Part shown: one piece after another, positions 1 through 62,077 of the stretch
How the letters are laid out: each line of letters opens with the position of its first letter
Numbering within the stretch: position 1 is the first letter of the stretch
Assembly: GCA_963716565.1 (NCBI GenBank)
Contig: OY970318.1
Span: 830-64,829, forward strand
Length of the DNA: 64,000 bases
Origin: an uncultured Candidatus Saccharibacteria bacterium
GTDB lineage: Bacteria > Patescibacteriota > Saccharimonadia > Saccharimonadales > CAIOMD01
Reading direction: 5' to 3'
Position numbers and translations under genes: made by a program
The notes under the pieces: model-generated
The model's database searches: none
What the model was told of the DNA's origin: nothing
What the model saw: the letters and a program-made list of their open reading frames with translations, nothing else

Positions 1-3000
1 AATGGTAGCTATTTCTACTCCAACCTCACCATCAACAAATCTGGCGGCGTAGCTTCTTTAGCGGCCAACTATTCGGTTAGCACGGCCAACCAAAGGGTCA
101 CCATTACGGCTGGCACTCTAGCAACAGCCGGCTATACTTTGGCTTTATCTGGTGCTGGCTCTGTATTTTCTAACGACGGCACTCTAAGGGTGCAGGGCGG
201 GGAAACTTTAACCTTCACCAAAGACACTAACTCTGGAACGGTAGAATATGTTGGTACTGGAGCCACCAACTACGCCTCCCTCAACTACGGCAACACCTAC
301 TATGGTCTTACCATTAACTCTACTTCTGGCACTAACTCCTTTACGGCTGCGGCCGCCACGGCTGTAGGTAATGACTTTACTCTAACGTCTGGTACTTTTG
401 TAGCTCCTTCGGCCGCTAACCTAACCGTTTCTAGAAACTTTACTCACTTTGGTGGCAACTTTACTCATAACTCTGGCACGGTAGTTCTAAATACTACCAC
501 CATGGCCGAAGTCACTGGTTCAACTACCTTCAATAACCTAACTTGCTCTACGGGTGGTAAAACTCTTAACTTTGGAGCGGGGGATACTCAAACAGTTGTA
601 GGTACTACTACCCTCAATGGTTCAGCTGGTAATCTACTGACTCTTAACAGCAACGCTAGTCCTACTCAATGGCGGATTGATCCCCAGGGTACCAGAAGTG
701 TTTCTTATGTTGATGTTAAAGATTCCAATAACATCGCTGTGGCTTCCATTGGCCCAAGTAATTCCACTAACAGCTACAACAATACTAATTGGTTCAGCTA
801 CAGCGTTACAGCTTCGGCTGGTGCTAATGGCAGCATTGACCCTACTGGTGTTAGCAATTACGACAGCGGCTCTAGCCCCACTTATGACATCACTCCCGAT
901 CCTGGCTACCACATAGCCGATGTATTAGTAGATTCCGTTTCGGTGGGTACGCCTACTAGCTATACCTTTACTAACATCACCGCTAACCACACCATCTCTG
1001 TTACCTTTACCATAGATACTTACACCATCACCGCCTCCGCCGGCAGCAACGGTGCTATTGACCCAGTGGGCACCGATACTTACAACCTCGGCGACAATGC
1101 CACCTACGACATTACCCCCAACGCCAACTACCACATTGCCGACGTCCTAGTAGATAGCGTATCCGTCGGTACTCCCACCAGCTACACCTTTACCAACATC
1201 GTAACTAACCACACCATTAGCGTTAGCTTCGCCATCGACACCAAAACTATAACCGCCTCCTCCGGCGCCAATGGCAGTATTGATCCGACTGGCACAGTAA
1301 CCGTTAACTACGGCAGCGACCAAACCTTCACTATTACAGCTGACCCCGGTTACCAAGTTGACGATGTGCTAGTTGACTCCGTCAGCGTCGGCGCTCTAAC
1401 CGAATACACTTTCACTAATGTCACTACTAACCACACCATTAGTGCTAGCTTCACTATTAACACTTACACCATCACCGCCTCCGCCGGCAGCAACGGTGCT
1501 ATTGACCCAGTGGGCACCGATACTTACAACCTCGGCGACAATGCCACCTACGACATTACCCCCAACGCCAACTACCACATTGCCGACGTCCTAGTAGATA
1601 GCGTATCCGTCGGTACTCCCACCAGCTACACCTTTACCAACATCGTAACTAACCACACCATTAGCGTTAGCTTCGCCATCGACACCAAAACTATAACCGC
1701 CTCCTCCGGCGCCAATGGCAGTATTGATCCGACTGGCACAGTAACCGTTAACTACGGCAGCGACCAAACCTTCACTATTACAGCTGACCCCGGTTACCAA
1801 GTTGACGATGTGCTAGTTGACTCCGTCAGCGTCGGCGCTCTAACCGAATACACTTTCACTAATGTCACTACTAACCACACCATTAGTGCTAGCTTCACTA
1901 TTAACACTTACACCATCACCGCCTCCGCCGGCAGCAACGGTGCTATTGACCCAGTGGGCACCGATACTTACAACCTCGGCGACAATGCCACCTACGACAT
2001 TACCCCCAACGCCAACTACCACATTGCCGACGTCCTAGTAGATAGCGTATCCGTCGGTACTCCCACCAGCTACACCTTTACCAACATCGTAACTAACCAC
2101 ACCATTAGCGTTAGCTTCGCCATCGACACCAAAACTATAACCGCCTCCTCCGGCGCCAATGGCAGTATTGATCCGACTGGCACAGTAACCGTTAACTACG
2201 GCAGCGACCAAACCTTCACTATTACAGCTGACCCCGGTTACCAAGTTGACGATGTGCTAGTCGACTCCGTCAGTGTCGGCGCTCTAACCGAATACACTTT
2301 CACTAATGTCACTACTAACCACACCATTAGTGCTAGCTTCACTATTAACACTTACACCATCACCGCCTCCGCCGGCAGCAACGGTGCTATTGACCCAGTG
2401 GGCACCGATACTTACAACCTCGGCGACAATGCCACCTACGACATTACCCCCAACGCCAACTACCACATTGCCGACGTCCTAGTAGATAGCGTATCCGTCG
2501 GTACTCCCACCAGCTACACCTTTACCAACATCGTAACTAACCACACCATTAGCGTTAGCTTCGCCATCGACACCAAAACTATAACCGCCTCCTCCGGCGC
2601 CAATGGCAGTATTGATCCGACTGGCACAGTAACCGTTAACTACGGCAGCGACCAAACCTTCACTATTACAGCTGACCCCGGTTACCAAGTTGACGATGTG
2701 CTAGTTGACTCCGTCAGCGTCGGCGCTCTAACCGAATACACTTTCACTAATGTCACTACTAACCACACCATTAGTGCTAGCTTCACTATTAACACTTACA
2801 CCATCACCGCCTCCGCCGGCAGCAACGGTGCTATTGACCCAGTGGGCACCGATACTTACAACCTCGGCGACAATGCCACCTACGACATTACCCCCAACGC
2901 CAACTACCACATTGCCGACGTCCTAGTAGATAGCGTATCCGTCGGTACTCCCACCAGCTACACCTTTACCAACATCGTAACTAACCACACCATTAGCGTT

Positions 3001-3636
3001 AGCTTCGCCATCGACACCAAAACTATAACCGCCTCCTCCGGCGCCAATGGCAGTATTGATCCGACTGGCACAGTAACCGTTAACTACGGCAGCGACCAAA
3101 CCTTCACTATTACAGCTGACCCCGGTTACCAAGTTGACGATGTGCTAGTCGACTCCGTCAGCGTCGGCGCTCTAACCGAATACACTTTCACTAATGTCAC
3201 TACTAACCATACGATTAGCGCTAGCTTCACGATCATTCCCGTTGTTACCCCAACACCTACGCCAACTCCCGCCTCCACGCCTACACCCACTCCGGCTTCA
3301 ATCTTTGTATCTGGGCAAATGCCTGCCTCTACGCCGACCCCAACCCCAACTCCCGAAGAAATGGCCTCTACAGAAAACCAAGCAGAAACCAACAAAGAGG
3401 CTGCCCAGTCTGGAAGCTCCAACAAATCATTAGCCATCTTTATTGCTTGCTTGGGTGGCTTTGCATTATCCTTATCGGTTTTCGGATTTTGGTATCATGC
3501 TCGACGAAGATACGATGATGCCACTAACCAGGCGTATCACCAAGTAGCAGGGAGCGAAGTTAAAGCCCAGACAATTGCACCCAATAGCCAAACGGCTTCG
3601 CAATACGATCAACCCCCTAATCGCAATATCTTTTAG
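1..3636 (+). CDS. Repeat-rich cell-surface protein, 5' end cut by the window edge (beta-helix-like region, Ig-like 'InlB B-repeat'-type modules, Pro/Thr linker, C-terminal membrane anchor)
   Basis: Frame 1 is open from base 1 (NGSYFYSNLTINKSGGVASLAANYSVSTANQRVTITAGTLATAGYTLALSGAG...). This matches the interior of the next gene, so the TTG at 139 in the ORF track is not the true start. The protein has about 74-aa modules of the form Y.ITAS.G.NG.I.P.G....Y.ITP..GY.I.DVLVDS.SVG....YTFTN(I/V)T.NHTIS.SF. A PT-rich linker lies at about 3235-3360. A hydrophobic segment LAIFIACLGGFALSLSVFGFWY followed by HARRR forms the anchor. Confidence 0.85.
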   Translation, partial: NGSYFYSNLTINKSGGVASLAANYSVSTANQRVTITAGTLATAGYTLALSGAGSVFSNDGTLRVQGGETLTFTKDTNSGTVEYVGTGATNYASLNYGNTYYGLTINSTSGTNSFTAAAATAVGNDFTLTSGTFVAPSAANLTVSRNFTHFGGNFTHNSGTVVLNTTTMAEVTGSTTFNNLTCSTGGKTLNFGAGDTQTVVGTTTLNGSAGNLLTLNSNASPTQWRIDPQGTRSVSYVDVKDSNNIAVASIGPSNSTNSYNNTNWFSYSVTASAGANGSIDPTGVSNYDSGSSPTYDITPDPGYHIADVLVDSVSVGTPTSYTFTNITANHTISVTFTIDTYTITASAGSNGAIDPVGTDTYNLGDNATYDITPNANYHIADVLVDSVSVGTPTSYTFTNIVTNHTISVSFAIDTKTITASSGANGSIDPTGTVTVNYGSDQTFTITADPGYQVDDVLVDSVSVGALTEYTFTNVTTNHTISASFTINTYTITASAGSNGAIDPVGTDTYNLGDNATYDITPNANYHIADVLVDSVSVGTPTSYTFTNIVTNHTISVSFAIDTKTITASSGANGSIDPTGTVTVNYGSDQTFTITADPGYQVDDVLVDSVSVGALTEYTFTNVTTNHTISASFTINTYTITASAGSNGAIDPVGTDTYNLGDNATYDITPNANYHIADVLVDSVSVGTPTSYTFTNIVTNHTISVSFAIDTKTITASSGANGSIDPTGTVTVNYGSDQTFTITADPGYQVDDVLVDSVSVGALTEYTFTNVTTNHTISASFTINTYTITASAGSNGAIDPVGTDTYNLGDNATYDITPNANYHIADVLVDSVSVGTPTSYTFTNIVTNHTISVSFAIDTKTITASSGANGSIDPTGTVTVNYGSDQTFTITADPGYQVDDVLVDSVSVGALTEYTFTNVTTNHTISASFTINTYTITASAGSNGAIDPVGTDTYNLGDNATYDITPNANYHIADVLVDSVSVGTPTSYTFTNIVTNHTISVSFAIDTKTITASSGANGSIDPTGTVTVNYGSDQTFTITADPGYQVDDVLVDSVSVGALTEYTFTNVTTNHTISASFTIIPVVTPTPTPTPASTPTPTPASIFVSGQMPASTPTPTPTPEEMASTENQAETNKEAAQSGSSNKSLAIFIACLGGFALSLSVFGFWYHARRRYDDATNQAYHQVAGSEVKAQTIAPNSQTASQYDQPPNRNIF
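1018..3237 (+). repeat. Five near-perfect tandem copies of a 444-bp unit (148 aa, two B-repeat-like modules each)
   Basis: The string acttacaccatcaccgcctccgccggcagc recurs at 1018, 1462, 1906, 2350 and 2794, a period of 444. The antisense ORFs in the track repeat with the same period and identical sequence. Only a few substitutions are visible (for example gttgac/gtcgac near 2260 and 3148). Confidence 0.95.
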
Positions 3637-3810: not shown

Positions 3811-11391
<7,581 letters not shown>

Positions 11392-11488
11392 GTGGTGTCG
11401 TTGCCGAAGTAAGGCCATGGATACAGCCGTCGACTAAAAGATAGCCTCAGCCTCTAGTCTTTAATCTTAAGCATTGTTATAATTTACA

Positions 11489-14400
11489 TTGATGGGAAAA
11501 GAAAAAATAACCCCGTCGTTATTAGGGTGTTCCAATAAAAATATGCAAAAACCCAATAGGGGTTTGTGTTTGAGGCGCCCTAACCCTGTAAAACGAATTC
11601 ACTTAAAACTTCTAAAGAATGTAAGCTATAACGTCTGGTTCAATAAATTTAGGAATCACAAAAAGACTCATTATGCTTATGGGGCTTTTGTTGTAGTTAT
11701 TTTAGCCTCAATTTTGATTACTAACTTAATGCCGAACAAGGCTGTAGCTACGGCCACCATGACCTGGACGAATAACGGCGACTTTAGTATGAACAAAGTC
11801 GGTGCTTGTGAAGCTACTACTTTAAACGGTGTAACGGTTACTGGTACAGCTTATACAGACGAAACGTGTGCCACGACTGGAATAGATTCAAGTACGACTT
11901 TAGCGGCAGGGCCGGCGTTTCTCAATAATGTTATTTCTTTGGCGGGAGGCGGTAGTCACGGTGTTGCCGCTAGGGCGGACGGAACAGTTTGGAATTGGGG
12001 TGGTAACGGTCGTGGCCAACTAGGAAACAATACATACATCTCTAGTATGTTCCCTGTTCAAGTTATGAATCCTGCCGGTAACGGTTATCTGACAGACATA
12101 GTCGCTGTCACTGCTGGCGCCGGACACACCCTAGCCCTTAAGAGCGATGGTACGGTTTGGGGGTGGGGGTATAGTGCTCATTATGAGTTAGGAGGGTACA
12201 CTACAGACAGATTATTGCCTGTCCAGGTGAATGGCCTGTCGGATATCATTGCGATATCTGGGGGTACTTGGCACTCTTTAGCCCTTAAGAGCGATGGTAC
12301 GGTTTGGGCTTGGGGGTATGGTGCTTATGGCCAACTAGGTATTAACTGGACCGGGAATACCGGAACACCTGTGCAGGTGAAAGATACGCCCGGAACTGGT
12401 TACCTAACTGGGATTACTGCAATTAGCGCTGGCGATAACCATTCTATAGCACTAGCGGGTGATGGCGCTGTCTGGGCATGGGGAAGAAATGATGATGGCA
12501 GGATAGGCGATGGAACTTCGGGCGTCGATAGAAGATTGCCTGTGCAGGTAAAAGATAGTGTCGGGTCTGGTTATCTAACAAATATAATTTCAGTAGCAGC
12601 GGGCGGAGGTCATAGTCTTGCCGCTGGCTCAGACGGTTATGTTTGGGCTTGGGGCGGGAATGTTGCGGGCCAGGTTGGTGATGGCACAATGACTTCCCCC
12701 AGAACCCTACCAATCAAAGTAAAAGACACTTCTGGTACAGGTTATTTGTCTAGTGTTATTAAGGTTACAGCGGGGTCATCTCACTCTATGGCCTTGAAGA
12801 ACGATGGCGGTGTTTGGGCGTGGGGATACAACAATTATAGTCAAATAGGCGATGGTTCACCTACGGACCACTCCACTCCGGTTCGCGTAAAAGATGCAGC
12901 CGGTACCGGATATTTAACCAATATATCTGCCATTTCTGGAGCCTATAATAATCCATTTGCCTTAGATAATGATGGCACGGTTTGGGCGTGGGGAGGGAAT
13001 AATGTTGGACAGGGTGGTTTTAGTTCGGTGTCTAGGTCTGCATCTAACACTACAACTCTGGATAAACCGAATCACATTCTGGCAATGGTGGATGCGACAA
13101 AGCTAGCAGATGTTACAAAAATAACCTCTAATTTGGCCTTAAAAAATGACGGCACAATCTGGGGTTGGGGAAATAATAGCAGTGGCGAGCTGGGAGATGG
13201 TACGGCTGTTAATCAGTCTGTGGCTGTACCTGTGGACGGCGGATATTTTAGTAATGTGGCGAGCATTGCATCTACAGCGCATTCAGTGGCCTTAAAAAAT
13301 GACGGAACAGTTTGGTCTTGGGGTTATGGTTATTATGGATCGCTAGGTATAAATTCCAATGTCAATAAATATAGTCCAGTTCAGGTGAGAGATGCTAGTG
13401 GAGCTAATTATTTAACTGATGTGATTGCCATTGCCGCCAACGGTTATTTCTCTTTGGCTCTAAAAAACGACGGCAGTGTTTGGGCGTGGGGCCAAAATAG
13501 TAGTGGCCAGCTAGGAGATGGAACTACTAGTCAAAGAAACCTACCAGTGCAAGTAAAGGATCCAGCTGGTACGGGGTATTTAACAGGCATTGTAGCGATC
13601 AGTGCTGGTAGTTCGCACTCTTTTGCTGTAAAAAATGACGGCACAATCTGGGGCTGGGGATACAATGCTTCCGGATGTCTCGGAGATAATACTACAACCC
13701 AGCGAACTTTACCCGTGCAGGTAAAAGATGCAGCTGGCACAGGCTACCTGTCTAATGTTGTCAAGATTATAGCCGGTGGAGGTACTTCCATGGCTATCTT
13801 GAACGATGGTACTGCTTGGGCTTGGGGGGTTAACAGTAATGGCCAAATTGGAGACGGTACTACTTCACAAAGAAATTTACCCGTACAGATTAAGGATACT
13901 GCCGGTACCGGCTACTTAGTTAATGTAGTATCTGTGTCTTCCGGTAGTAATTTTTCGATAGCGTCAACATCAGATGGTAGAGTTTGGGCTTGGGGTTATG
14001 GCTATTACGGTCAACTGGGAGGAAGCAGTGGATCAAGTCTGCCGCAACCCGTTTTAGATCCATCCGGTTCTGGGTATTTGTCTGGTGTTGCGGCAGTGTC
14101 TGCAGGTTCCAATCGCTCAGTGGCGCTTAAATCTGATGGCACCGTAATGTCTTGGGGCTACAATCTTGGTGGTCAGGTGGGGAATGGAACGCAAATTCCT
14201 ACCTATGTACCGGATAATGTATATTCAAATATTGACCTCAACGCCGGCTACGTTGGCACTGGCACAGCCTCCAACTTCATTGCCGACATGGGCTCTAACC
14301 GTAAAACCAAGTGGTACGACCTAGATTGGAACACTAGTGCTTTGCCAGCTAATACTAGCTTGAAGTTCAATGTTCGTAGCAGTGATGATAAAGTGAGTTG

Positions 14401-17056
14401 GTCAGACTGGAGCAGTGACTTCACTCAAAACACACCTGGTTCCACAACTGGCAATGCCGACATCTCGGCCCTTCCATTCAGTCGCTACCTGGAAGTCAAA
14501 GCTACCCTTACCTCTACCGACTTAGTTAATACCCCAACTTTGCAAGATTTCACCATCACCCACATGAACGATCAGAATGCCCCAACTTGGGACTACCCAG
14601 TTGCCATTCCGGTTTACACCGACGACACTAAAGCTACAGCCCTTACTTCCAGCTCTTGGCAAGCCAACAACAATCTAACTAGTATCTATGCTGATTGGTC
14701 TGGAGCCACCGAACCAGAAGAAGAATCAGGCATTGCCCACTACTACGTCTACCTTGGTACCGACAACACCGCTAATCCCATCACCGCTGGTGTAGATATG
14801 GATACCGCCACCGAAGGTTACATCGATTTACCAAACAATCCCACGGACGGCACTTACTACCTGCGCGTTACCGTATCTGACCTAGCTGGCAATAACCTCA
14901 ACATGCCATCCGGTAGTGATTTGTTCAAATATCTTTATGATGGCACTAAACCTAATAACCCATCTTATATTTCGGTCTCGCCAGTGGGCTGGAGCATAGC
15001 CAACAGTTTTGACTTTAGCTGGCCCGAAGCCCTAGACCCTGGCAGCGGTTCGTCTAATATCGATTACTATCAATATCGCAAAGCTGGTGGGGGCGACACT
15101 TGGCATGACACTGTCGACAGATCGATTATCGGGATCACTTCTTACCAAGATGGTCGTAACGAATTCTTCGTTCGAGCTATCGACAACGCTGGTAATATTG
15201 CCGACAACCAAACCAGCGTTTATTACTACTACAACGGTTCGGCTCCAAGCGCTCCTGCTGGTTTGGACGTGGTACCACCCAACGCTACAACTAACAGCTT
15301 TACCTTCACCTGGTCAGAACCAGCTGTCCACAATGCCGACATTCGTGGCTATTACTACTCCATTGGCCCCGAGCCGACTATTAACAATTCGGTCTTTACT
15401 ACTAACACTACTACCGGCGCTATTCCGGCTGCCACCCAGCAGGGCTTTAATACCTTTTACGTAGTAGCAGTTGACGCTGATGACCAAATTAACTGGGGCA
15501 GTTATGCCGAAATCCAATTTGAATGTAACACTACCGCCCCAGGTATACCAGGCGGAGTGGTAATTAGTGATAGTAGCAACCGAGCTGATGAAAACTGGGC
15601 ACTCACTACGGCATGGAGCGCCTCAGCCGGAACAGTCCACCATTATAATATCTACCGTTCTACTGATGGCATTAACTTCTCGGCCATCGGCCAAACGGGC
15701 AGTACAGGCTTTTTTGACTCCGGCCTATCCAATACATCCACTTATCATTACAAAATTACCGCCGTAGATAACGCTGGTGCCGAATCAGCCTTTTCGTCGA
15801 CCGTCTCTAAGCAACCAACTGGCAAGTTCACCGAACCGCCGTTAATTGTTACTGGTCCTGATGTCGACATTAAAGCCACTCGTGCCACCATAACTTGGAG
15901 TACCGACAGAGCTTCATCCAGCTTTGCGGCTTACTCTAAAGATAACTCTTACGCTGAATCTAAGGGCCAGGTGGACTCGGTTACTTCGCATAGCGTAGAA
16001 CTATCTGGCTTAGAAGCTGGTACTACCTACAACTTCAAGGTCCAATCTTTAGACGAAAACCGCGACTACCCAATCGAAGATGCTTATTCTGGTGAATTCA
16101 ATTTTACCACTCAATCGGCCCCTGGTATCGCCGAAGTTAATGTTTCGGATATTCGGTTAACTTCAGCCACCGTTACCTGGAAGACTACCACAGTAGCCAC
16201 CTCTACAATTGTTTATGGTAAGACTGCCAACTATGGTCAAACTATCACTGACCAATCCGGCTCGGCTGTTACCACTCACACAGTTAAGCTAGAGGGTCTA
16301 GACCATACCACTCCATATTTCTTTAAGATTTATGGTACGGACAGTGATGGCAACCAGCTAGTCTCCGACAACTACGCCTTCAGTACTCTAACCTATCCCC
16401 GAGCTTATGATGTGCGTTTTGAGCAGCAAAAGAACACGGCTACATCCACTCTAAAGGTTACCTGGACGACTAATGTGCCCACGAGCTCCATTGTTACTTA
16501 CAACCAAGAAGGTGAAAGCTCAAAAGAAGTATCCAAATCTACCCTAGAAACTACTCACTCTATGTTAGTGCCCAATCTTCAAGACAACGTGCTGTACTAC
16601 ATGAGCGTTGGTGGCCGTGATGCCTATGGTAACGCCGCCTTGTCAGACAGTCAACGAGTTAAAACCGACTACGACACCCGTCCGCCAGCCGTCACCGACA
16701 TCGTCACCGAAAGCACTTCGTCTGGTTATGGCTTAGATACCAAGGCCCAAATAGTGGTATCTTGGATGACCGACGAACCAGCCACATCCCAAGTGGAATA
16801 TGCCGAAGGCGTAACAGGTGACAGCTACAATATGCGCTCCCCAGAAGATAGTGGCTTAAGCACTTCTCATGTTGTTGTATTAACCGATCTCAAACCATCT
16901 AGCTCCTACCACTTTCGAGTTATCTCTAAAGATACCTCTGCCAACCAAACTATCTCCGAACCAGACTCGGTTCTAACCGACATAGCTCGGGCTTCTATCA
17001 TCGACATCATTATTAAGTCCCTCCAAGATACTCTTGGCTGGCTGTTTGGAGGATAG
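11489..17056 (+). CDS. Giant (1855 aa) membrane-anchored RCC1-repeat (beta-propeller) / fibronectin-III-like surface protein
   Basis: There is an N-terminal TM segment (YAYGAFVVVILASILITNL). Many RCC1-type repeats follow (G..H..AL..DGTVW.WG.N..GQLGDGT...R..PVQV), spanning about 11900-14200. The C-terminal part has repeated ~95-aa FN3/purple-acid-phosphatase-N-like modules (I.W.T....S.V.YG........T.H.V.L.GL...T.Y.F.V.S.D..GN). The start is ambiguous (TTG 11489, ATG 11492 or ATG 11543). Confidence 0.8.
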   Translation: MMGKEKITPSLLGCSNKNMQKPNRGLCLRRPNPVKRIHLKLLKNVSYNVWFNKFRNHKKTHYAYGAFVVVILASILITNLMPNKAVATATMTWTNNGDFSMNKVGACEATTLNGVTVTGTAYTDETCATTGIDSSTTLAAGPAFLNNVISLAGGGSHGVAARADGTVWNWGGNGRGQLGNNTYISSMFPVQVMNPAGNGYLTDIVAVTAGAGHTLALKSDGTVWGWGYSAHYELGGYTTDRLLPVQVNGLSDIIAISGGTWHSLALKSDGTVWAWGYGAYGQLGINWTGNTGTPVQVKDTPGTGYLTGITAISAGDNHSIALAGDGAVWAWGRNDDGRIGDGTSGVDRRLPVQVKDSVGSGYLTNIISVAAGGGHSLAAGSDGYVWAWGGNVAGQVGDGTMTSPRTLPIKVKDTSGTGYLSSVIKVTAGSSHSMALKNDGGVWAWGYNNYSQIGDGSPTDHSTPVRVKDAAGTGYLTNISAISGAYNNPFALDNDGTVWAWGGNNVGQGGFSSVSRSASNTTTLDKPNHILAMVDATKLADVTKITSNLALKNDGTIWGWGNNSSGELGDGTAVNQSVAVPVDGGYFSNVASIASTAHSVALKNDGTVWSWGYGYYGSLGINSNVNKYSPVQVRDASGANYLTDVIAIAANGYFSLALKNDGSVWAWGQNSSGQLGDGTTSQRNLPVQVKDPAGTGYLTGIVAISAGSSHSFAVKNDGTIWGWGYNASGCLGDNTTTQRTLPVQVKDAAGTGYLSNVVKIIAGGGTSMAILNDGTAWAWGVNSNGQIGDGTTSQRNLPVQIKDTAGTGYLVNVVSVSSGSNFSIASTSDGRVWAWGYGYYGQLGGSSGSSLPQPVLDPSGSGYLSGVAAVSAGSNRSVALKSDGTVMSWGYNLGGQVGNGTQIPTYVPDNVYSNIDLNAGYVGTGTASNFIADMGSNRKTKWYDLDWNTSALPANTSLKFNVRSSDDKVSWSDWSSDFTQNTPGSTTGNADISALPFSRYLEVKATLTSTDLVNTPTLQDFTITHMNDQNAPTWDYPVAIPVYTDDTKATALTSSSWQANNNLTSIYADWSGATEPEEESGIAHYYVYLGTDNTANPITAGVDMDTATEGYIDLPNNPTDGTYYLRVTVSDLAGNNLNMPSGSDLFKYLYDGTKPNNPSYISVSPVGWSIANSFDFSWPEALDPGSGSSNIDYYQYRKAGGGDTWHDTVDRSIIGITSYQDGRNEFFVRAIDNAGNIADNQTSVYYYYNGSAPSAPAGLDVVPPNATTNSFTFTWSEPAVHNADIRGYYYSIGPEPTINNSVFTTNTTTGAIPAATQQGFNTFYVVAVDADDQINWGSYAEIQFECNTTAPGIPGGVVISDSSNRADENWALTTAWSASAGTVHHYNIYRSTDGINFSAIGQTGSTGFFDSGLSNTSTYHYKITAVDNAGAESAFSSTVSKQPTGKFTEPPLIVTGPDVDIKATRATITWSTDRASSSFAAYSKDNSYAESKGQVDSVTSHSVELSGLEAGTTYNFKVQSLDENRDYPIEDAYSGEFNFTTQSAPGIAEVNVSDIRLTSATVTWKTTTVATSTIVYGKTANYGQTITDQSGSAVTTHTVKLEGLDHTTPYFFKIYGTDSDGNQLVSDNYAFSTLTYPRAYDVRFEQQKNTATSTLKVTWTTNVPTSSIVTYNQEGESSKEVSKSTLETTHSMLVPNLQDNVLYYMSVGGRDAYGNAALSDSQRVKTDYDTRPPAVTDIVTESTSSGYGLDTKAQIVVSWMTDEPATSQVEYAEGVTGDSYNMRSPEDSGLSTSHVVVLTDLKPSSSYHFRVISKDTSANQTISEPDSVLTDIARASIIDIIIKSLQDTLGWLFGG

Positions 17057-23383: not shown

Positions 23384-23770
23384 GGGACTGACTTTAGCTC
23401 GACGTTGAATATTAACAATTTATGCATGCAAGCCGGTTTGTGCACCGTTACCGTACTACAATAAGTAGATGGCAAAAACTTTCTACAGCGTGTAGCTAGC
23501 ATGTTTTCCATGCCAGCTTACGCACCAGCCCTAGTTTAATCTAAGGCGATTGCTTGGTTTGATGCCAGGTAGAACCAAAGCAGTCTCATATTTTCTGGCT
23601 GCCAATCTTGAGCACCGTTTGAGCTCATTTTTGTAAGCTTTTCGAACTGCGGCTAATAGTTTTTTGTCTGTTTTATAACTAGTAGCCTAAGACACCCCAA
23701 ACAGAATAAGCTTGTAGAGGCATGAGTTGTTGTTCGACGGACCCGGGTGCGATTCCCGGCAGTTCCACCA
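23384..23770 (+). ncRNA. ssrA: tmRNA (SsrA)
   Basis: The 5' end GGGACTGACTTTAGCTCGACG resembles the canonical GGGGCUGAUUCUGGAUUCGACG. At the 3' end the T-arm is CCGGG-tgcgatt-CCCGG, followed by CAGTTCC-A-CCA. The 7-bp acceptor stem pairs 23384-23390 with 23760-23766 and includes a G3:U70 pair. A candidate tag ORF GGC AAA AAC ... GCC CTA GTT TAA runs 23470-23538. Its reading frame is tentative. Confidence 0.85.
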
Positions 23771-23889: not shown

Positions 23890-24156
23890 ATGAAGGGTCA
23901 TTTTGTCTACATATTGGAATCGGAAATCGATAGTTCTTGGTATATAGGTTATTCTCAAGATGTAAAACAGAGACTCTTAGCGCATAATTCTGGCAAGAAC
24001 GTGTCTACAAAACTAAAGAAACCGTGGCGGTTAATTTATTTTGAGGGCTATCTTAATAAGAGTGACGCGTTAGGCAGAGAAGAATTTTTAAAATCAGGTA
24101 GCGGACACAGGTTCATTCGCAAGCAAATTTGTCACTATTTGCTAGAAAAGAATTGA
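23890..24156 (+). CDS. GIY-YIG nuclease-family small protein
   Basis: The sequence FVYILESEIDSSWYIGYSQDVKQRLLAHNSG fits the GIY...YIG motif, followed by ...R...E. Confidence 0.75.
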   Translation: MKGHFVYILESEIDSSWYIGYSQDVKQRLLAHNSGKNVSTKLKKPWRLIYFEGYLNKSDALGREEFLKSGSGHRFIRKQICHYLLEKN

Positions 24157-28069: not shown

Positions 28070-28103
28070 AAGAAGAGCTGACAAAAAACAGCTCTTCTTT
28101 TGG
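28070..28103 (+). terminator. Intrinsic terminator after the pilin gene
   Basis: AAGAAGAGCTG-acaaaaaa-CAGCTCTTCTT forms the hairpin and is followed by TTTGG. Confidence 0.8.
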
Positions 28104-28108
28104 TTTGC

Positions 28109-28155
28109 CTATCGTCTATCATCCATCGTCCAACGTCCATTTAATCTGGTACAAT
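28109..28155 (+). promoter_or_regulatory. Five phased heptamers plus an extended -10 (TGgTACAAT) upstream of metG
   Basis: The heptamers ctatcgt ctatcat ccatcgt ccaacgt ccattta are followed by atc and TGGTACAAT (28147-28155). The ATG lies 9 nt downstream. Confidence 0.6.
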
Positions 28156-28164
28156 AGATACGCA

Positions 28165-29616
28165 ATGAGCAAGTATTATATAACCACTTCTATACCCTAT
28201 GTTAACGATCAACCGCATCTAGGCCATGCTATGGAATATGTCTACGCCGATGTATTAGCTCGTTATCATCGCAAACTTGGCGACAATGTACTTTTTAGTA
28301 CTGGCGCCGATGAGCACGGCAGTAAAATTGCCCTAAAGGCCAAAGAGTTGGGCGTTACTCCAAAAGAGCTAACCGAAAAGAATGTGGCTGGTTTTGTAAA
28401 ACTGCTTAAAAAATTAGATATTACCAACGACCGGTTTATTCGTACTAGCGATAAAGCCCACCAACAGCGGGTCCAGATGATCTGGGCAAAACTAAAAAAA
28501 GATATTTACAAGAATAAGTATATTGGCTTGTATTGTGTAGGTTGCGAAGAATTTGTTACCGAAACAACCGCTAAAGAGCATAAGAATGTCTGCCCGGTCC
28601 ATCAGAAACCTTACGAAAAACTAGAAGAAGAAAATTACTTTTTTGCCCTAAGTCGTTACAGCGAGGCAATCAAAGCGGCTATTAAGAGTGATTCGTTGCA
28701 CGTTATACCCAAGACTCGCAAAAATGAAATACTAAGCCTAATAGACAGTGGCTTAGATGATATAAGCATTTCTAGGCCGGTAGATAAACTAGCCTGGGGC
28801 GTTAAGGTTCCCGGTGATGACAAGCAAATAATGTATGTTTGGTTCGAAGCCTTACTAAACTATATAACGGTTCTCGGCTACCCAGAACATGAAGATTTTG
28901 CCAGCTACTGGCCAGCCAGCATACAAGTTATTGGTAAAGACATTTTGCGTTTTCATGCTGCCATTTGGCCCGGTATTCTTTTGGCCCTAGACCAACACTT
29001 GCCCAAACAGCTATACGTACACGGTTTTGTGAACGTAAATGGCCAAAAGATGAGCAAAAGCGCGGGTAATGGCGTAGACCCTAACGAAGTTATTGCCAAA
29101 TACGGTAGCGATGCCTTTCGCTACTTCTTTATGCGCCACATTCCCAGCTACGAAGACGGCGACTTTACTTGGGAACTAATGGAAAAAGCTTACAACAACG
29201 AACTAGCCAATGAATTAGGCAATGCAGTTGGGCGCGTAGCCGCCATGGTTAATAAGTACCAGAACAATATTGTTGGCACTATTCCAGAAGCCGGCCATGA
29301 CATTCATGAATACCAAGACGCTCTAGAAAAATGTCGTTTCGATAAAGCTTTAGACGAAGTCTGGGAGCAAGTGCGCGGTGTGAATCAGTACATCGACACC
29401 GAAAAGCCATGGGTTATTGCAAAAAGTGGCGATGAGCCTCATTTGCGGGAAGTGCTAGCTTATGCCGTTAGTTGTCTGCTAGAAATTGCCGACTTACTAG
29501 AACCATTTATGCCCACCGCCTCCAAGAAGATTAACTACCTGTTTAAAGAGGGTGTTATTAGGCCCTTGGATGGCTCATTATTTCCTAAAGAAGAAGTTAC
29601 TAACACTGCAAAATAA
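28165..29616 (+). CDS. metG: Methionyl-tRNA synthetase
   Basis: MSKYYITTSIPYVNDQPHLGHAMEY carries the HIGH-type motif and KMSKS is present. A Zn-knuckle CVGCEEF...CPVH is present. The start is placed at ATG 28165, in frame with the track's TTG at 28105. Confidence 0.9.
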   Translation: MSKYYITTSIPYVNDQPHLGHAMEYVYADVLARYHRKLGDNVLFSTGADEHGSKIALKAKELGVTPKELTEKNVAGFVKLLKKLDITNDRFIRTSDKAHQQRVQMIWAKLKKDIYKNKYIGLYCVGCEEFVTETTAKEHKNVCPVHQKPYEKLEEENYFFALSRYSEAIKAAIKSDSLHVIPKTRKNEILSLIDSGLDDISISRPVDKLAWGVKVPGDDKQIMYVWFEALLNYITVLGYPEHEDFASYWPASIQVIGKDILRFHAAIWPGILLALDQHLPKQLYVHGFVNVNGQKMSKSAGNGVDPNEVIAKYGSDAFRYFFMRHIPSYEDGDFTWELMEKAYNNELANELGNAVGRVAAMVNKYQNNIVGTIPEAGHDIHEYQDALEKCRFDKALDEVWEQVRGVNQYIDTEKPWVIAKSGDEPHLREVLAYAVSCLLEIADLLEPFMPTASKKINYLFKEGVIRPLDGSLFPKEEVTNTAK

Positions 29617-37883: not shown

Positions 37884-37927
37884 CTTTCCGGCCAGAAAAT
37901 TGATGCTCATCGTCTATAATGTAGGGG

Positions 37928-38962
37928 ATGAAAACAGTTTATGTTGGTTTAAGTGGCGGAGTAGACAGTTCGGTGGCGGCCGCCTTGCTAAAAGAGCAGG
38001 GCTATCATGTGGTTGGTGCCTACATGAAAAACTGGAGCCAGAGCTTGCCTGGTTTTACTTGCCCATGGCGCGATGATTACCAAGATGCTAAGCGAGTTGC
38101 CGTGCAACTTGGCATTGATTTTGAGTTATTTGATTTCGAAAAAGACTATCGCCAAAAAGTGGTGGACTATATGATTGATGTCTTTAAGTCTGGCCAAACA
38201 CCAAATCCAGATATTATGTGCAACCAAGAGATAAAATTTAAATTGTTTTTAAATACAGCTTTAGAAAAAGGCGCCGATTTTATTGCCACCGGCCACTATG
38301 CTCGTACTAAAAACGGCCAGCTATTTAAGGCTAAAGACGACAATAAAGACCAAACTTATTTCTTATACCGAGTTACTAGCCAGGCTTTGGCTAAAACAAT
38401 TTTTCCGCTGGGCGACTTAACAAAGCCCCAAGTCCGGGAACTGGCTAAAAAATACAATTTAGTTACGGCTACCAAAAAAGAAAGTATGGGAATTTGTTTT
38501 GTTGGCAAAGTGCCAATTAAAGACTTCTTGCTAAATTATGTTAAATCAAAAACAGGGAACATTGTTGATCAATTTGGCCGTGTTATTGGCCAGCACGATG
38601 GAGCCATCTTTTATACCATCGGCCAACGGCATGGTTTAGATGTTGGCGGCGGTTTGCCATATTACGTTGTTGGCAAAGATATGAAAAAGAACGAAGTTTA
38701 TGTATCTACCCAACTTAACGATGAGAAGTTGTGGCTTAAGGAGCTGACGCTAACAGAATGGCACTGGATAAACCGGTCGCCCGTGCCCAATAAAGTCTAC
38801 GAAATCCGTACTCGGCATCGTGCTCCACTGGCTAAGGCTGTGTTTAAAGATGAATCCTTAAAAACACTAAGCCTAAAAGAGCCGGTTAGGGCAATTACTC
38901 CTGGCCAATCAGTGGTTATCTACGATGGCCAAGAAGTCCTTGGCGGTGGCATCATTATTTAG
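37928..38962 (+). CDS. mnmA: tRNA-specific 2-thiouridylase
   Basis: The PP-loop is VGLSGGVDSSVAA. Other motifs are KNW, NPDI.CN..IKF, ATGHYAR and DQTYFL. Confidence 0.9.
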   Translation: MKTVYVGLSGGVDSSVAAALLKEQGYHVVGAYMKNWSQSLPGFTCPWRDDYQDAKRVAVQLGIDFELFDFEKDYRQKVVDYMIDVFKSGQTPNPDIMCNQEIKFKLFLNTALEKGADFIATGHYARTKNGQLFKAKDDNKDQTYFLYRVTSQALAKTIFPLGDLTKPQVRELAKKYNLVTATKKESMGICFVGKVPIKDFLLNYVKSKTGNIVDQFGRVIGQHDGAIFYTIGQRHGLDVGGGLPYYVVGKDMKKNEVYVSTQLNDEKLWLKELTLTEWHWINRSPVPNKVYEIRTRHRAPLAKAVFKDESLKTLSLKEPVRAITPGQSVVIYDGQEVLGGGIII

Positions 38963-39071
38963 ACGTTGGATAATGGACGTTAGACAATAGAGGGCTACCT
39001 ACGCAGGTTATGTTATTTGGCATTTCTAACATCTAATGTCCATCGTCTATCGTCTAATAATGGTGTACAAT
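38956..39071. promoter_or_regulatory. Inverted pair of 5-heptamer arrays flanking a ~30-nt spacer; the right arm abuts TGGTGTACAAT
   Basis: The minus-strand array (38990 down to 38956) reads ctattgt ctaacgt ccattat ccaacgt ctaaata. The plus-strand array (39026-39060) reads ctaacat ctaatgt ccatcgt ctatcgt ctaataa. It is followed by TGGTGTACAAT (39061-39071). The two arms can pair over about 30 positions with a few mismatches. Confidence 0.6.
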
Positions 39072-39113: not shown

Positions 39114-39416
39114 ATGGGCCTATTTAGTTTTTTTAAAAAGCAGTCCGACCAGCAAGTACAAAATCAAAACATGGCTGATAACCAGCTTAGCCCTGCAGCC
39201 GATGTGCCTGCAGCTACTCCACCAGTAAACGTTAACCAAGTGCCGCCGTCACCAGCTCCAATGTCACCAAGCAATCCAGAACCGGTTGTTCCACCCACAG
39301 AACCAGCCGCCCCAGCAGAAAATGCTAACGATGTAGCAGGTGATTCACTAGATGGTGCTCAAAGCGATAGCGGCAGCGATTCGGGCAGTTCTGACGCCGG
39401 TGACTCCAGCTGGTAG
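39114..39416 (+). CDS. Pro-rich, acidic low-complexity protein (100 aa) with an amphipathic N-terminus
   Basis: GGAG precedes the ATG. The sequence runs MGLFSFFKKQ..., then a PxP-rich middle, then a DSGSDSGSSDAGDSSW tail. Confidence 0.55.
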   Translation: MGLFSFFKKQSDQQVQNQNMADNQLSPAADVPAATPPVNVNQVPPSPAPMSPSNPEPVVPPTEPAAPAENANDVAGDSLDGAQSDSGSDSGSSDAGDSSW

Positions 39417-39432
39417 TTTTTAAGCTTAACCA

Positions 39433-39462
39433 TTGACTAAAAATTAAATAATTTTTTAAAGT
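39433..39462 (+). promoter_or_regulatory. Weak candidate promoter for the structured RNA
   Basis: TTGACT lies at 39433-39438, followed by an 18-nt spacer and TAAAGT at 39457-39462. Confidence 0.3.
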
Positions 39463-39468
39463 GTTTTT

Positions 39469-39924
39469 TGCTATTATTTAAAGAACCTCTTGTTGGGAGG
39501 TCTTGGGGGACTATAAGCAAGCGGTCCGGGCAAATCGGGGCATCACGTTTTGTTCAAGTAATGAACCGTACGGGCTTGATCTGTGATGAGTTAGCGGTGA
39601 CACTCAACAACACCAGCCGGGGTGCCCTTAGGGGCTACCACCAATACGCATGGGTTTACCCAGCCGTGGCGAAGAGCCAACGGCCCGAGTCACTCCTTGA
39701 TGTATGGGGGTGACATCCATCTGTGTTACCTGTGGCTCAGGTATAGGCGGAAGCGCCTTATCAGGGCCATCAAGGTCAAGACCACTGTGGGGGTATCCAA
39801 AACCTATGCGCCTTCCAGGCAGGCACGAAACCAAGTTCCCCGGTTTGCCTTTCGTGCCTGAAAACTCTGCGGATAGTCCAGTGGTATCCATTCCATCTGG
39901 GCTATCCGCTATAACCATAGTCTT
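39469..39924 (+). ncRNA. GC-rich structured non-coding region directly upstream of the RT; candidate retron msr-msd RNA (boundaries uncertain)
   Basis: GC rises to 58% (counted over 39601-39660) against 17% in 39421-39480. The ORF track shows overlapping ORFs in several frames on both strands with no SD or start context, a typical non-coding signature. An 11-bp perfect hairpin pairs 39820-39830 with 39850-39860. A 13 to 16-bp hairpin spans 39869-39909. A 13-bp long-range complement pairs GGGCAAATCGGGG (39528-39540) with CCCCGGTTTGCCT (39838-39850). Confidence 0.55.
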
Positions 39925-40995
39925 ATGAGCCAGATACAATTATTTGATCCAGAAGCATTAATGCAACCAGCGGTTGACCCCAGGGTCGAAAAATTATTGA
40001 GTGGCTTTGAGGACGCTAGCTTTAGGACATTCCCAAAACAAGAGCGCGATAAAGTTCGTTGGCTGCACGATCCCAACGAAAGCATGCGAGAGGCACATGA
40101 ACTTATTAAAGAGCTCGCTGCGAATGCTAGTGCCATATCGCCACATGCCACTGGGCTACAAGGTGGTAGTCGTGCCAATGCTGAACGGCATTTGGGCAAT
40201 AAGTTTTTTTATTTGATTGATTTAAAAGATGCCTACGGACAAATACAATTACCAGCGCTTGCAGAATTTTTAGGCAACCATGGCTTTCCAGCCGAGACTG
40301 CTGACATCGAAACTATTTTAAATCGTTTTTGTCGCAAACCCGACGGGCAGGGTCTTTGCCAAGGGGGCCCAGCCTCGCCGTTACTATTTAACATTGCCCT
40401 TTATGATGTCGACCAACAAATAGCGGGAATATGCGAAAAGCATGAACTAACTTATACGCGATATGCGGATGATTTGGCTATTTCTGGCCGTGAATCAATT
40501 GGCGATAAGAAGCGTAAGCAAATACGTGGAGTTCTTGAAGAGGCTGGGTTAGAAATTAGCCATAAAAAGACTCACCGCCATAGTTTGGCGAATGCTCCTG
40601 TAGTTGTGACTGGCATTCAGATAAATCGCAGCGGTTCAATTATTTTACCTACGCCCAAACAGCTAAGAGTAGCTAATATTATAAATGAGCTGTGCTTTCA
40701 AGTATTCGAGGATGGCGAACCATTAACCGAATTGCAGGTCCAAAAGGTGGCTGGCTACAAAGGCATGGTTATGTCTGCTATCGATGGGCGTCGAAAAGAT
40801 CTAACGGCTTTCGAAAAAGATGCTCTTGTAAAAGCCGAAGCATTAAGACTTTCGTATAAGCAGAGTAGGGAGACGGTCAATTTGGGCTTCACGGCTCTTA
40901 GATTATTCAATGGTCGACCGATGCAAATCGAAATTGTCGATGGTAGATTCCGCAGAGTAGTCGGCCCATCATTTGAACTGCCAAAACGGGATTAA
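39925..40995 (+). CDS. Retron-type reverse transcriptase (356 aa)
   Basis: Motifs in order are SRANAERH (NAxxH), YLIDLKDAY, LCQGGPASPLLFN (QGxxxSP), YTRYADDLAIS (YADD codons 40462-40473), SHKKT and PVVVTGIQIN (VTG). The protein aligns by eye along its whole length with retron Ec86 RT. Confidence 0.85.
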   Translation: MSQIQLFDPEALMQPAVDPRVEKLLSGFEDASFRTFPKQERDKVRWLHDPNESMREAHELIKELAANASAISPHATGLQGGSRANAERHLGNKFFYLIDLKDAYGQIQLPALAEFLGNHGFPAETADIETILNRFCRKPDGQGLCQGGPASPLLFNIALYDVDQQIAGICEKHELTYTRYADDLAISGRESIGDKKRKQIRGVLEEAGLEISHKKTHRHSLANAPVVVTGIQINRSGSIILPTPKQLRVANIINELCFQVFEDGEPLTELQVQKVAGYKGMVMSAIDGRRKDLTAFEKDALVKAEALRLSYKQSRETVNLGFTALRLFNGRPMQIEIVDGRFRRVVGPSFELPKRD

Positions 40996-61652: not shown

Positions 61653-61656
61653 CTTA

Positions 61657-61699
61657 TCTAGCGTCTATCATCCATCATCTAGCGTCTAATTTGGTATAA
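61657..61699 (+). promoter_or_regulatory. Five phased heptamers plus an extended -10 (TGgTATAAT), third copy of the motif
   Basis: The heptamers ctagcgt ctatcat ccatcat ctagcgt ctaattt are followed by GGTATAAT (61692-61699). The array starts 5 nt after the uvrC stop. The ATG at 61714 lies 14 nt after the -10. Confidence 0.6.
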
Positions 61700-61713
61700 T
61701 AGGCAACTGACTC

Positions 61714-62077
61714 ATGACAAAAACTTTTTTCAGATTTTCAATCAGATGGTTCGCCAATAGCTTGGGCCTGTATGTAGCCGCTCGAATTTTTGAATTAGTA
61801 GATTATCAGAATCGTTGGGGAGTTATTATCACGGCCGGTTTAGTCTTGGCAATTCTTAATATTCTTATAAGGCCGGTGTTGATTATTTTTACCTTGCCAG
61901 CCATCGCTCTAACCTTGGGTATTTTTATGATTGTCATTAATGGGCTTAATTGTTTCGCTAGCTAGTTGGCTGTACGAATCATTGCAGGTTAGCTCTTTTT
62001 GGGCGGCAATGCTTGTGGGTATAGTCATTGGGCTGGTAAACTATATAGTATCGGTCGTCACCGAGCGGTTGGAGTAA
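61714..62077 (+). pseudogene. DUF360/'phage holin family 4'-like membrane protein with a +1 frameshift caused by a GCTA tetranucleotide duplication
   Basis: The ORF 61714-61965 ends ...INGLNCFAS*. The next frame continues ASWLYESLQVSSFWAAMLVGIVIGLVNYIVSVVTERLE* (61961-62077). Removing one GCTA of tcGCTAGCTAgttgg (61957-61964) restores a single ~120-aa ORF. Confidence 0.65.

Follow-up and report, generated by a model that had tools for sequence, protein, structure and literature searches.

Heptanucleotide arrays beside -10 boxes in a Saccharibacteria genome: a further family of bacterial intergenic repeats, tentatively read as protein-binding platforms

What is the same composite of unspaced 7-bp units and a -10 box doing in front of unrelated genes? 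The question is raised by a stretch of 64,000 nucleotides from an uncultured Candidatus Saccharibacteria bacterium (assembly GCA_963716565.1, contig OY970318.1, positions 830 to 64,829; hereafter the window), which is 64 kb of a 799-kb genome. Homologues of MetRS, UvrC and MnmA likewise assign it to Saccharibacteria (Candidatus Saccharimonadales). An original prediction, made from the letters of the window, had listed three such arrays, the first before the methionyl-tRNA synthetase gene metG, and a remnant before mnmA. All four were present when the sequence was read, with the positions of the first two arrays (A1 and A2) standing as given and those of the third (A3) and of the remnant each off by one, and a fourth full array (A4), on the minus strand, had been missed. 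The observation is thus confirmed in a stronger form than first described, and its interpretation, discussed below, is partly supported. Comparison loci from other genomes are labelled with L-numbers (e.g. L121, L158).

A1 consists of four full heptads, CTATCGT, CTATCAT, CCATCGT and CCAACGT (28109-28136, plus strand; sequence reading, pattern scan and Tandem Repeats Finder), and a terminal A/T-rich unit, CCATTTA (28137-28143, plus strand; sequence reading), and the whole array (28109-28143) is followed by atc and then by TGgTACAAT (28147-28155, plus strand). A2 (39026-39060, plus strand; CTAACAT, CTAATGT, CCATCGT, CTATCGT, CTAATAA) is followed by tgg and then by TG-TACAAT (39064-39071, plus strand). 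A3 (61658-61692, plus strand; CTAGCGT, CTATCAT, CCATCAT, CTAGCGT, CTAATTT) begins 5 nt past the uvrC stop codon, and its end overlaps TGgTATAAT (61692-61700, plus strand). A4 (38956-38990, minus strand; CTATTGT, CTAACGT, CCATTAT, CCAACGT, CTAAATA), found by a regular-expression scan, extends over the TAG with which mnmA ends (38960-38962) and has no -10 behind it. The remnant (37908-37920, plus strand; sequence reading) is one and a half units, CATCGT CTATAAT (catcgtctataat), the last of which is itself the mnmA -10 (TATAAT, 37915-37920), with the ATG at 37928.

Each window array is built of four CYANYRT heptads and one CYAWWWW end unit, and all four lie within the non-coding fraction (~8% of the window). 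The pattern CYANYRT x4 + CYA gave 4 exact matches in the window, with 0.01 expected from 100 dinucleotide shuffles, far more than chance would give; the same scan with up to 3 mismatches found no further array in the window. Period 7 was reported independently by Tandem Repeats Finder at 28111-28140, 39038-39056 and 61656-61688. Neighbouring units are never identical within any window array, and long runs of identical units, as in phase variation of the hmw type, were not found there. Gene spacing around A4/A2, the one property compared, is identical in two same-species assemblies (Logan ERR12035938 and ERR15459710); same-species records were reached via SecG and AtpC, and none via MetRS under either start.

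How constrained the unit is was assessed from 49 units in 11 arrays. Position 7 is T in all 49, positions 1 and 3 are C and A in 48 each, positions 2 and 5 are Y and position 6 is R in 47 each, and position 4 is T in 23, A in 21 and G in 5. Variation is very uneven over the seven positions (heterogeneity chi-square 59.9, p = 5e-11), in a set where orthologous arrays are counted as independent and part of the arrays were found by the pattern itself. The core reads RTCYA every 7 bp, over 4 to 8 units, and a terminal CYAWWWW unit is present in every clade array. Fixed C1, A3 and T7 are what a factor reading a 7-bp register, one of the roles originally suggested, would need. Because units within an array differ, recent slippage cannot explain their uniformity.

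A1-A3 each lie 6-10 bp upstream of a -10 box, of the extended form TGnTAYAAT at two of them (A1 and A3); at A2 the TG directly abuts TACAAT, a non-canonical arrangement relative to TGn spacing. The extended -10 of metG is conserved across Saccharibacteria. The metG coding sequence (28165-29616, plus strand) starts downstream of A1, and its mRNA is predicted to be leaderless or nearly so, because the ATG at 28165 is only 9 nt past the -10. The box behind A2 is the predicted -10 of a 100-aa open reading frame (ORF; 39114-39416), with GGTGTACAAT invariant in three genomes, and the box behind A3 is that of a holin-4-like/secG operon (ATG at 61714). The claim that a heptad array and a -10 stand together before unrelated genes therefore holds. 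Most window promoters are of the same simple kind, with TAnAAT or TGnTAnAAT 6-13 nt before the start codon (e.g. starts at 23890, 37928, 41023, 44084, 53014 and 56678), without Shine-Dalgarno sequence and without recognisable -35; -10 boxes so close to the starts imply that window mRNAs may be widely leaderless.

Whether the arrays take the place of a -35, as had been proposed for metG, can be answered from the relatives. In ~20 Saccharibacteria the metG promoter has a conserved TGnTACAAT at a distance of ~9 nt from the ATG; the sequence upstream of it is unrelated, contains no conserved -35 and in most cases lacks an array. No -35 was found hidden inside the arrays either, since the hexamer that stands 17 bp before each of the three -10 boxes (GTCCAA, TCGTCT and ATCATC) is unlike TTGACA and unlike the other two. 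The word "replacing" was thus too strong: because the metG promoters of the phylum carry no -35 there, the arrays appear to fill the -35 zone, as optional and lineage-specific occupants. At every promoter array, in the window and in the relatives, the last core is 6-15 bp from a predicted -10, some other arrays lying away from promoters, and at each of the four promoter sites the array is oriented like the gene that follows. The stop codon of the preceding gene is 0-125 nt away, and a separate terminator hairpin can intervene, as in the L159 holin locus and at A1, where the intrinsic-terminator-like hairpin of the gene upstream of metG (28070-28099, plus strand; also in L121) lies 5' of the array and apart from it. 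The idea of a promoter module fits the three window sites with array plus -10, and does not extend to A4 and a conserved array pair in L121 and L161, which abut gene 3' ends.

The same sites in related genomes show how the arrays persist. At metG, L123 (88% MetRS identity) has 4.5 units, L121 (85%) has 2.5 units, exactly two units away from the window array, and L125 (72%) has ~8 units; L122 (83%) has no array and keeps GATACAATagata, and no array was found at the metG site of the remaining relatives. At holin/secG, 4.5 units are present in L159 (69% UvrC identity), 5.5 units in L160 (71%) and a decayed array in L158 (79%). The L159 array is separated from uvrC by an additional gene and a terminator hairpin and is still beside the holin -10. 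Downstream of mnmA, the plus-strand array (A2 in the window) and GGTGTACAAT are kept in L161 and L162, that is in 3/3 genomes with the window, at a length of 4.5 to 5.5 units, and of these two only L162 has also kept the inverted arm (97-nt spacer), which L161 has lost. FAD-oxidase promoters carry arrays in 2/2 genomes, namely L159 and L158, where the array is 7.5 units long and includes a higher-order repeat of 21 bp; a divergent pair follows atpC in L121 and L161. One unit family therefore occurs at no fewer than five, i.e. at least five, unlinked site classes (metG, mnmA-downstream, holin/secG, FAD-oxidase and atpC-downstream). In relatives no array reaches into a gene beyond its stop codon, and ~400 kb of other Patescibacteria loci contained no such array, apart from one in L125. 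The arrays gain and lose whole units, in a manner that resembles replication slippage. Inversion of the gene between arrays flanking mnmA was considered and rejected, the minus-strand gene after atpC in L121 not being mnmA.

Is such an element known? The original prediction had not recognised it as a described motif, which stands for this unit and this phylum, no report of such repeats having been found for either in the literature searched, and fails for the class, since intergenic heptameric repeats are described (PMC4692102, PMC4679880). The window arrays are an additional family within this class of bacterial intergenic heptanucleotide repeats: they have a head-to-tail 7-bp unit in at least 3 copies, a strong non-coding bias, one unit at many sites with a sporadic, lineage-restricted distribution, shared intergenic sites in relatives with differing copy number and sequence, and the polarity described by Rehm et al. 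(2015). That heptamers are the class over-represented among bacterial simple repeats has been noted since 2007 or earlier, and a slippage bias towards 7 nt has been proposed as the reason in bacteria generally (Mrazek 2007, cited in both PMC4679880 and PMC4692102); bacterial heptanucleotide repeats have no established function or reader (PMC4692102, PMC4679880).

The closest likeness is to the GGGAATC repeats of Xanthomonas and the GGGGAYT repeats of Nostoc (Rehm et al. 2015, PMC4692102), which share with the window arrays a 7-bp unit preferred in about four copies, a non-coding bias, many sites per genome, inverted arrangements, functionally unrelated adjoining genes, and intergenic sites common to relatives with varying length and sequence. 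Their polarity towards ORFs is also the same (PMC4692102), the purine-rich strand being non-coding upstream of ORFs and coding downstream. In A1-A3 the pyrimidine strand is the coding strand upstream of genes, and in A4 and the L121/L161 pair the purine strand is the coding strand past gene ends. In contrast to those repeats, the window unit is pyrimidine-rich without G-runs, its copies are degenerate rather than near-perfect, its phylum is different, and the arrays of the window family abut a -10 at 6-15 bp. Without G-runs, formation of a G-quadruplex or i-motif cannot apply, and what was explored as a structural reason in the G-rich families therefore cannot be general; that the window unit obeys their copy-number and polarity regularities all the same speaks for a cause common to the families and against one tied to a particular structure. 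Cyanobacterial STRR heptamers, reportedly described by Mazel in 1990, are of this class as well.

TAACTGA repeats of marine Beggiatoaceae, cyanobacteria and some Bacteroidetes (2-6 copies; MacGregor 2015, PMC4679880) are likewise heptamer direct repeats, intergenic, forward-oriented just upstream of unrelated genes, and sporadic and lineage-restricted, and a dedicated binding protein has been proposed for them. They lie within a few nt of the start codon, overlapping the ribosome-binding region, with a translational role proposed, whereas the window arrays have another unit sequence and lie upstream of the -10 of leaderless genes, probably outside the mRNA. The promoter-region heptamers of Haemophilus influenzae hmw1A/hmw2A (PMC8262952) vary in copy number between strains; unlike the window arrays, which have few, imperfect units upstream of the -10 of housekeeping genes, these tracts are perfect, with copy numbers from 9 to 28 or more, and are located downstream of promoters, where slippage adjusts adhesin expression. 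PhoB and SARP boxes, direct heptamer repeats to which activators of these types bind where a -35 would stand, resemble the window arrays in placing a heptamer ~8-10 bp upstream of a -10 that has no -35, and CTGTCAT is one mismatch from CTATCAT. Heptamers in those boxes recur every 11 bp (7 + 4 spacer), which places monomers on one face of the helix, unlike the contiguous, spacerless 7-bp period found here.

A CYANYRT-type pattern scan over 185,579 species genomes placed the arrays in a wider setting; the figures that follow hold among the matches listed, all from other phyla (L001-L120), which include Bacteroidota, Chloroflexota, Acidobacteriota, Gemmatimonadota, Clostridia and others. The unit differs by genome (CCAGCAT, CTACTGT, CCATCGT, CTAATAT, etc.), and the arrays are often perfect, long, and arranged as divergent inverted pairs. 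By crude ORF calls, 119/151 arrays are intergenic, and the pyrimidine strand is oriented towards the nearest gene in 74 vs 28 cases (within 60 nt; p = 6e-6), with 49 vs 13 for gene ends. A 7-bp period, about four units, gene polarity and inverted pairs are thus regularities common to unrelated heptamer families in Xanthomonas, Nostoc and other phyla. Matches in a viral-contig scan were mostly perfect AT-rich simple repeats.

Further heptad families were seen in the Patescibacteria loci themselves. TTACTTA x5 stands directly before the obg -10 in L158, TTGWAAA arrays are found in two distant genomes (L158 and L153), a TATAAT in L148 lies between the arms of an inverted AGCTAAT pair, and TTAACTG x5 follows metG in a related Patescibacteria locus. 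The arrays of these other families lie at 7-40, 2177-2211 and 9854-9914 of L158, at 11429-11479 and 16869-16897 of L153, at 3091-3181 of L148, and at 7511-7548 of L122.

What could read a 7-bp register? To our knowledge, the omega repressor is the only well-characterised reader of unspaced heptads. The operators and parS sites of omega, a ribbon-helix-helix (RHH) protein of inc18 plasmids such as pSM19035, are 6-10 unspaced WATCACW heptads, direct or inverted, that overlap the -35 zone of several promoters and bind about one dimer per heptad (PMC4627068). The window arrays likewise are unspaced 7-bp heptads, direct or inverted, varying in number and orientation by site, and, judged by the predicted -10 boxes, they probably lie over the -35 zone of several promoters; the likeness extends partly to sequence, the core being ATCRTCY in another register. 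They differ from omega operators in consensus (CYANYRT, with RTCYA core, sharing only a register-shifted ATC with WATCACW), in location (chromosomal housekeeping promoters rather than plasmid maintenance genes) and in length (4-5 rather than 6-10 units). The likeness is one of way of working, and no omega membership is claimed, because the consensus is different and no RHH gene was found.

By this analogy, and with some reserve, we favour a reading in which the arrays are cooperative protein-binding platforms of an omega-like kind. A small DNA-binding protein would read one heptad per dimer and bind cooperatively along the array, which occupies about -17 to -50 of -10 or extended -10 promoters that are mostly leaderless and lack a -35; the bound protein would modulate access of RNA polymerase to a few promoters that have nothing else in common, repression being the simplest case, and it would also bind the inverted copies at gene ends. 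A trans-acting reader best explains why C1, A3 and T7 are constrained, why the unit recurs at unlinked sites, why imperfect arrays persist across genera and why they constantly abut a -10, and retention of the holin promoter array at only 69-79% UvrC identity agrees with this. A wider proposal, that a chromosomal omega-like binder with a 7-bp register controls a few -35-less housekeeping promoters and that a common machinery for heptad arrays, not dependent on G-quadruplexes, exists across phyla, is an extension of the same analogy that we regard as rather doubtful.

Several observations weigh against a dedicated reader, and most of them suit its main rival, in which the arrays are filler made by slippage that persists in information-free DNA and affects expression only passively; in a compact genome such free DNA would be the -35-less zone upstream of a -10 and the few bases past stop codons. 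The metG array is dispensable, since L122 and most Saccharibacteria keep the same -10 without it. The atpC-downstream pairs lie in convergent regions without a promoter. Genes downstream of arrays are functionally unrelated housekeeping genes with no common function or apparent regulatory logic, and no regulatory role could be shown for the analogous Xanthomonas and Nostoc repeats (PMC4692102). Among tandem repeats in 519 kb of Patescibacteria loci no period is as common as 7, and the equivalent places of relatives are occupied by heptads of other families (TTACTTA, TTGWAAA, AGCTAAT), which suggests a generic process rather than one regulator. Fixed phasing of the arrays with the -10 was considered and rejected, the gaps of 6-15 bp showing no fixed register, and the constraint statistic has the dependence and the pattern-based selection given with it above. 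No omega-like or ParA gene was seen. Nine window ORFs, among them the neighbours of A1 and A2, and a single array-adjoining ORF of L159 gave no Pfam match to an RHH domain or to any other domain that binds DNA, and the 146-aa genes close to arrays, found in L158 and L159, are not related to one another.

Slippage filler would in addition account for the unit-step length difference between the window and L121 at metG (two units), for the 21-bp higher-order duplication in L158, for the decay of the L158 holin array, and for the general over-representation of heptamers for which slippage has been proposed (Mrazek 2007, as cited above). It does less well in other respects: slippage alone leaves unexplained why one unit family stands at five or more unlinked sites, three of the seven positions are invariant while adjacent units differ, imperfect arrays are still recognisable at 69-79% protein identity, and the array always abuts the -10 despite 35-125 nt of other free spacer. 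We therefore regard filler as possible, if somewhat unlikely, and keep to a cooperative binding platform as the preferred reading.

The arrangement of A4 and A2 raises the question of RNA structure. The two form an inverted repeat (38950-39066, plus strand) with 45-bp arms and a 35-nt spacer, and the RNA folds at -48.5 kcal/mol (z = -8.6). The repeat reaches past the heptads, the last mnmA codons catcattatttag (38950-38962) pairing with ctaataatggtg (39054-39066) just before the next -10, and outer pairing beyond the heptads is also seen in L162. The pairs of L162 (z = -4.0) and of L161 after atpC (z = -2.5) fold, and that of L121 folds no better than shuffles (z = -1.85). Inverted pairs could thus be hairpins that end or stabilise transcripts of upstream or convergent genes, with single, pyrimidine-rich arrays in read-through RNA as unstructured pads for, e.g., S1, cold-shock proteins or Rho. 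The strength of the A4/A2 fold, its continuation into the mnmA 3' end, the location of pairs at just those sites that call for a terminator (behind mnmA and in convergent regions) and the RNA-binding readers proposed by MacGregor for TAACTGA heptamers (PMC4679880) speak for this; against it, two of the four window arrays (A1 and A3) are solitary, the hairpins have no U-tract behind them, A4/A2 included, and no array was called as an intrinsic terminator, the L121 pair is unremarkable, and L161 has kept the promoter array after mnmA and lost the inverted arm. A1 and the L159 holin array, moreover, are probably not transcribed, because they lie past a separate terminator and upstream of a leaderless start. 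On balance, a role in RNA or DNA structure is unlikely to be the general explanation.

Sigma sequestration and promoter melting, two of the functions first suggested, would have the arrays act as tandem -10 look-alikes (C + TAnnnT), decoy or auxiliary boxes that trap or feed RNA polymerase via the housekeeping sigma factor. The invariant A3 and T7 do match the key -10 bases A-11 and T-7, position 2 is mostly T (T-12), the units point the same way as the real -10 at each of the four promoter sites, and the last mnmA unit, CTATAAT, is itself the -10. The resemblance to TAnnnT is where the agreement stops: the units are 1-4 nt out of register with the real -10 and lack the TG extension used by promoters of this genome, about a quarter of them are CAnnnT, the invariant C1 has no -10 role, inverted copies would fire antisense into gene ends, and TTACTTA and TTGWAAA stand at equivalent sites without any TAnnnT. 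This explanation is improbable.

The weakest candidates, ends of a small mobile element like a miniature inverted-repeat transposable element (MITE) or uptake-signal sequences, can claim a similar inverted-pair geometry in the window and L121 (35- and 38-nt spacers), the divergent pairs common in other phyla among the matches listed and the natural competence of Saccharibacteria (PMC10633639), and are very unlikely: MITEs were rejected because the spacers are unrelated in sequence (35 nt in the window vs 97 nt at the orthologous mnmA site of L162, and 38 nt at the atpC site of L121) and because the pairs show neither the conserved internal sequence nor the target-site duplications of MITEs or repetitive extragenic palindromic elements, and no transposase was seen; uptake signals were rejected because single units are only ~1.3-fold enriched outside arrays and, unlike such signals, are not scattered over coding DNA.

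A heptad-reading protein, should there be one, would be among very few transcription regulators known in Patescibacteria. The genome offers a clean test case, being ~0.8 Mb in size, with few and short arrays, a fixed place beside simple, -10-only leaderless promoters and a constrained core, and Saccharibacteria are now genetically tractable through natural competence (PMC10633639).

Some neighbouring features were noted. Downstream of the A2 promoter, a retron-type reverse transcriptase gene (39925-40995) matches Pfam RVT_1, with retron reverse transcriptase types III-A and II-A as best PADLOC matches, and the ~500 bp before it (block 39417-40995) hold no convincing ORF and may be the retron non-coding RNA; the one Rfam match in the window is a transfer-messenger RNA (tmRNA), with no match around A2 or the retron. 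The block looks like an insertion, because it is missing at the orthologous L161 site, where alaS comes immediately after the small ORF. Past A3, the holin-4-like gene (61714-62077) is present as two overlapping ORFs of 83 and 48 aa and its relatives have a single intact ORF of 119-120 aa (PF04020), so that a frameshift, a pseudogene or a sequencing error is possible. At 962-3230, a 444-bp tandem repeat (5.1 copies, 98% identity) lies within a 1165-aa ORF and is followed by two giant ORFs, at 3811-11391 (2526 aa) and 11489-17056 (1855 aa); these are probably surface proteins. The tmRNA gene lies at 23384-23770 (Rfam, 106.5 bits), with GKNFLQRVASMFSMPAYAPALV as the tag peptide given by ARAGORN.

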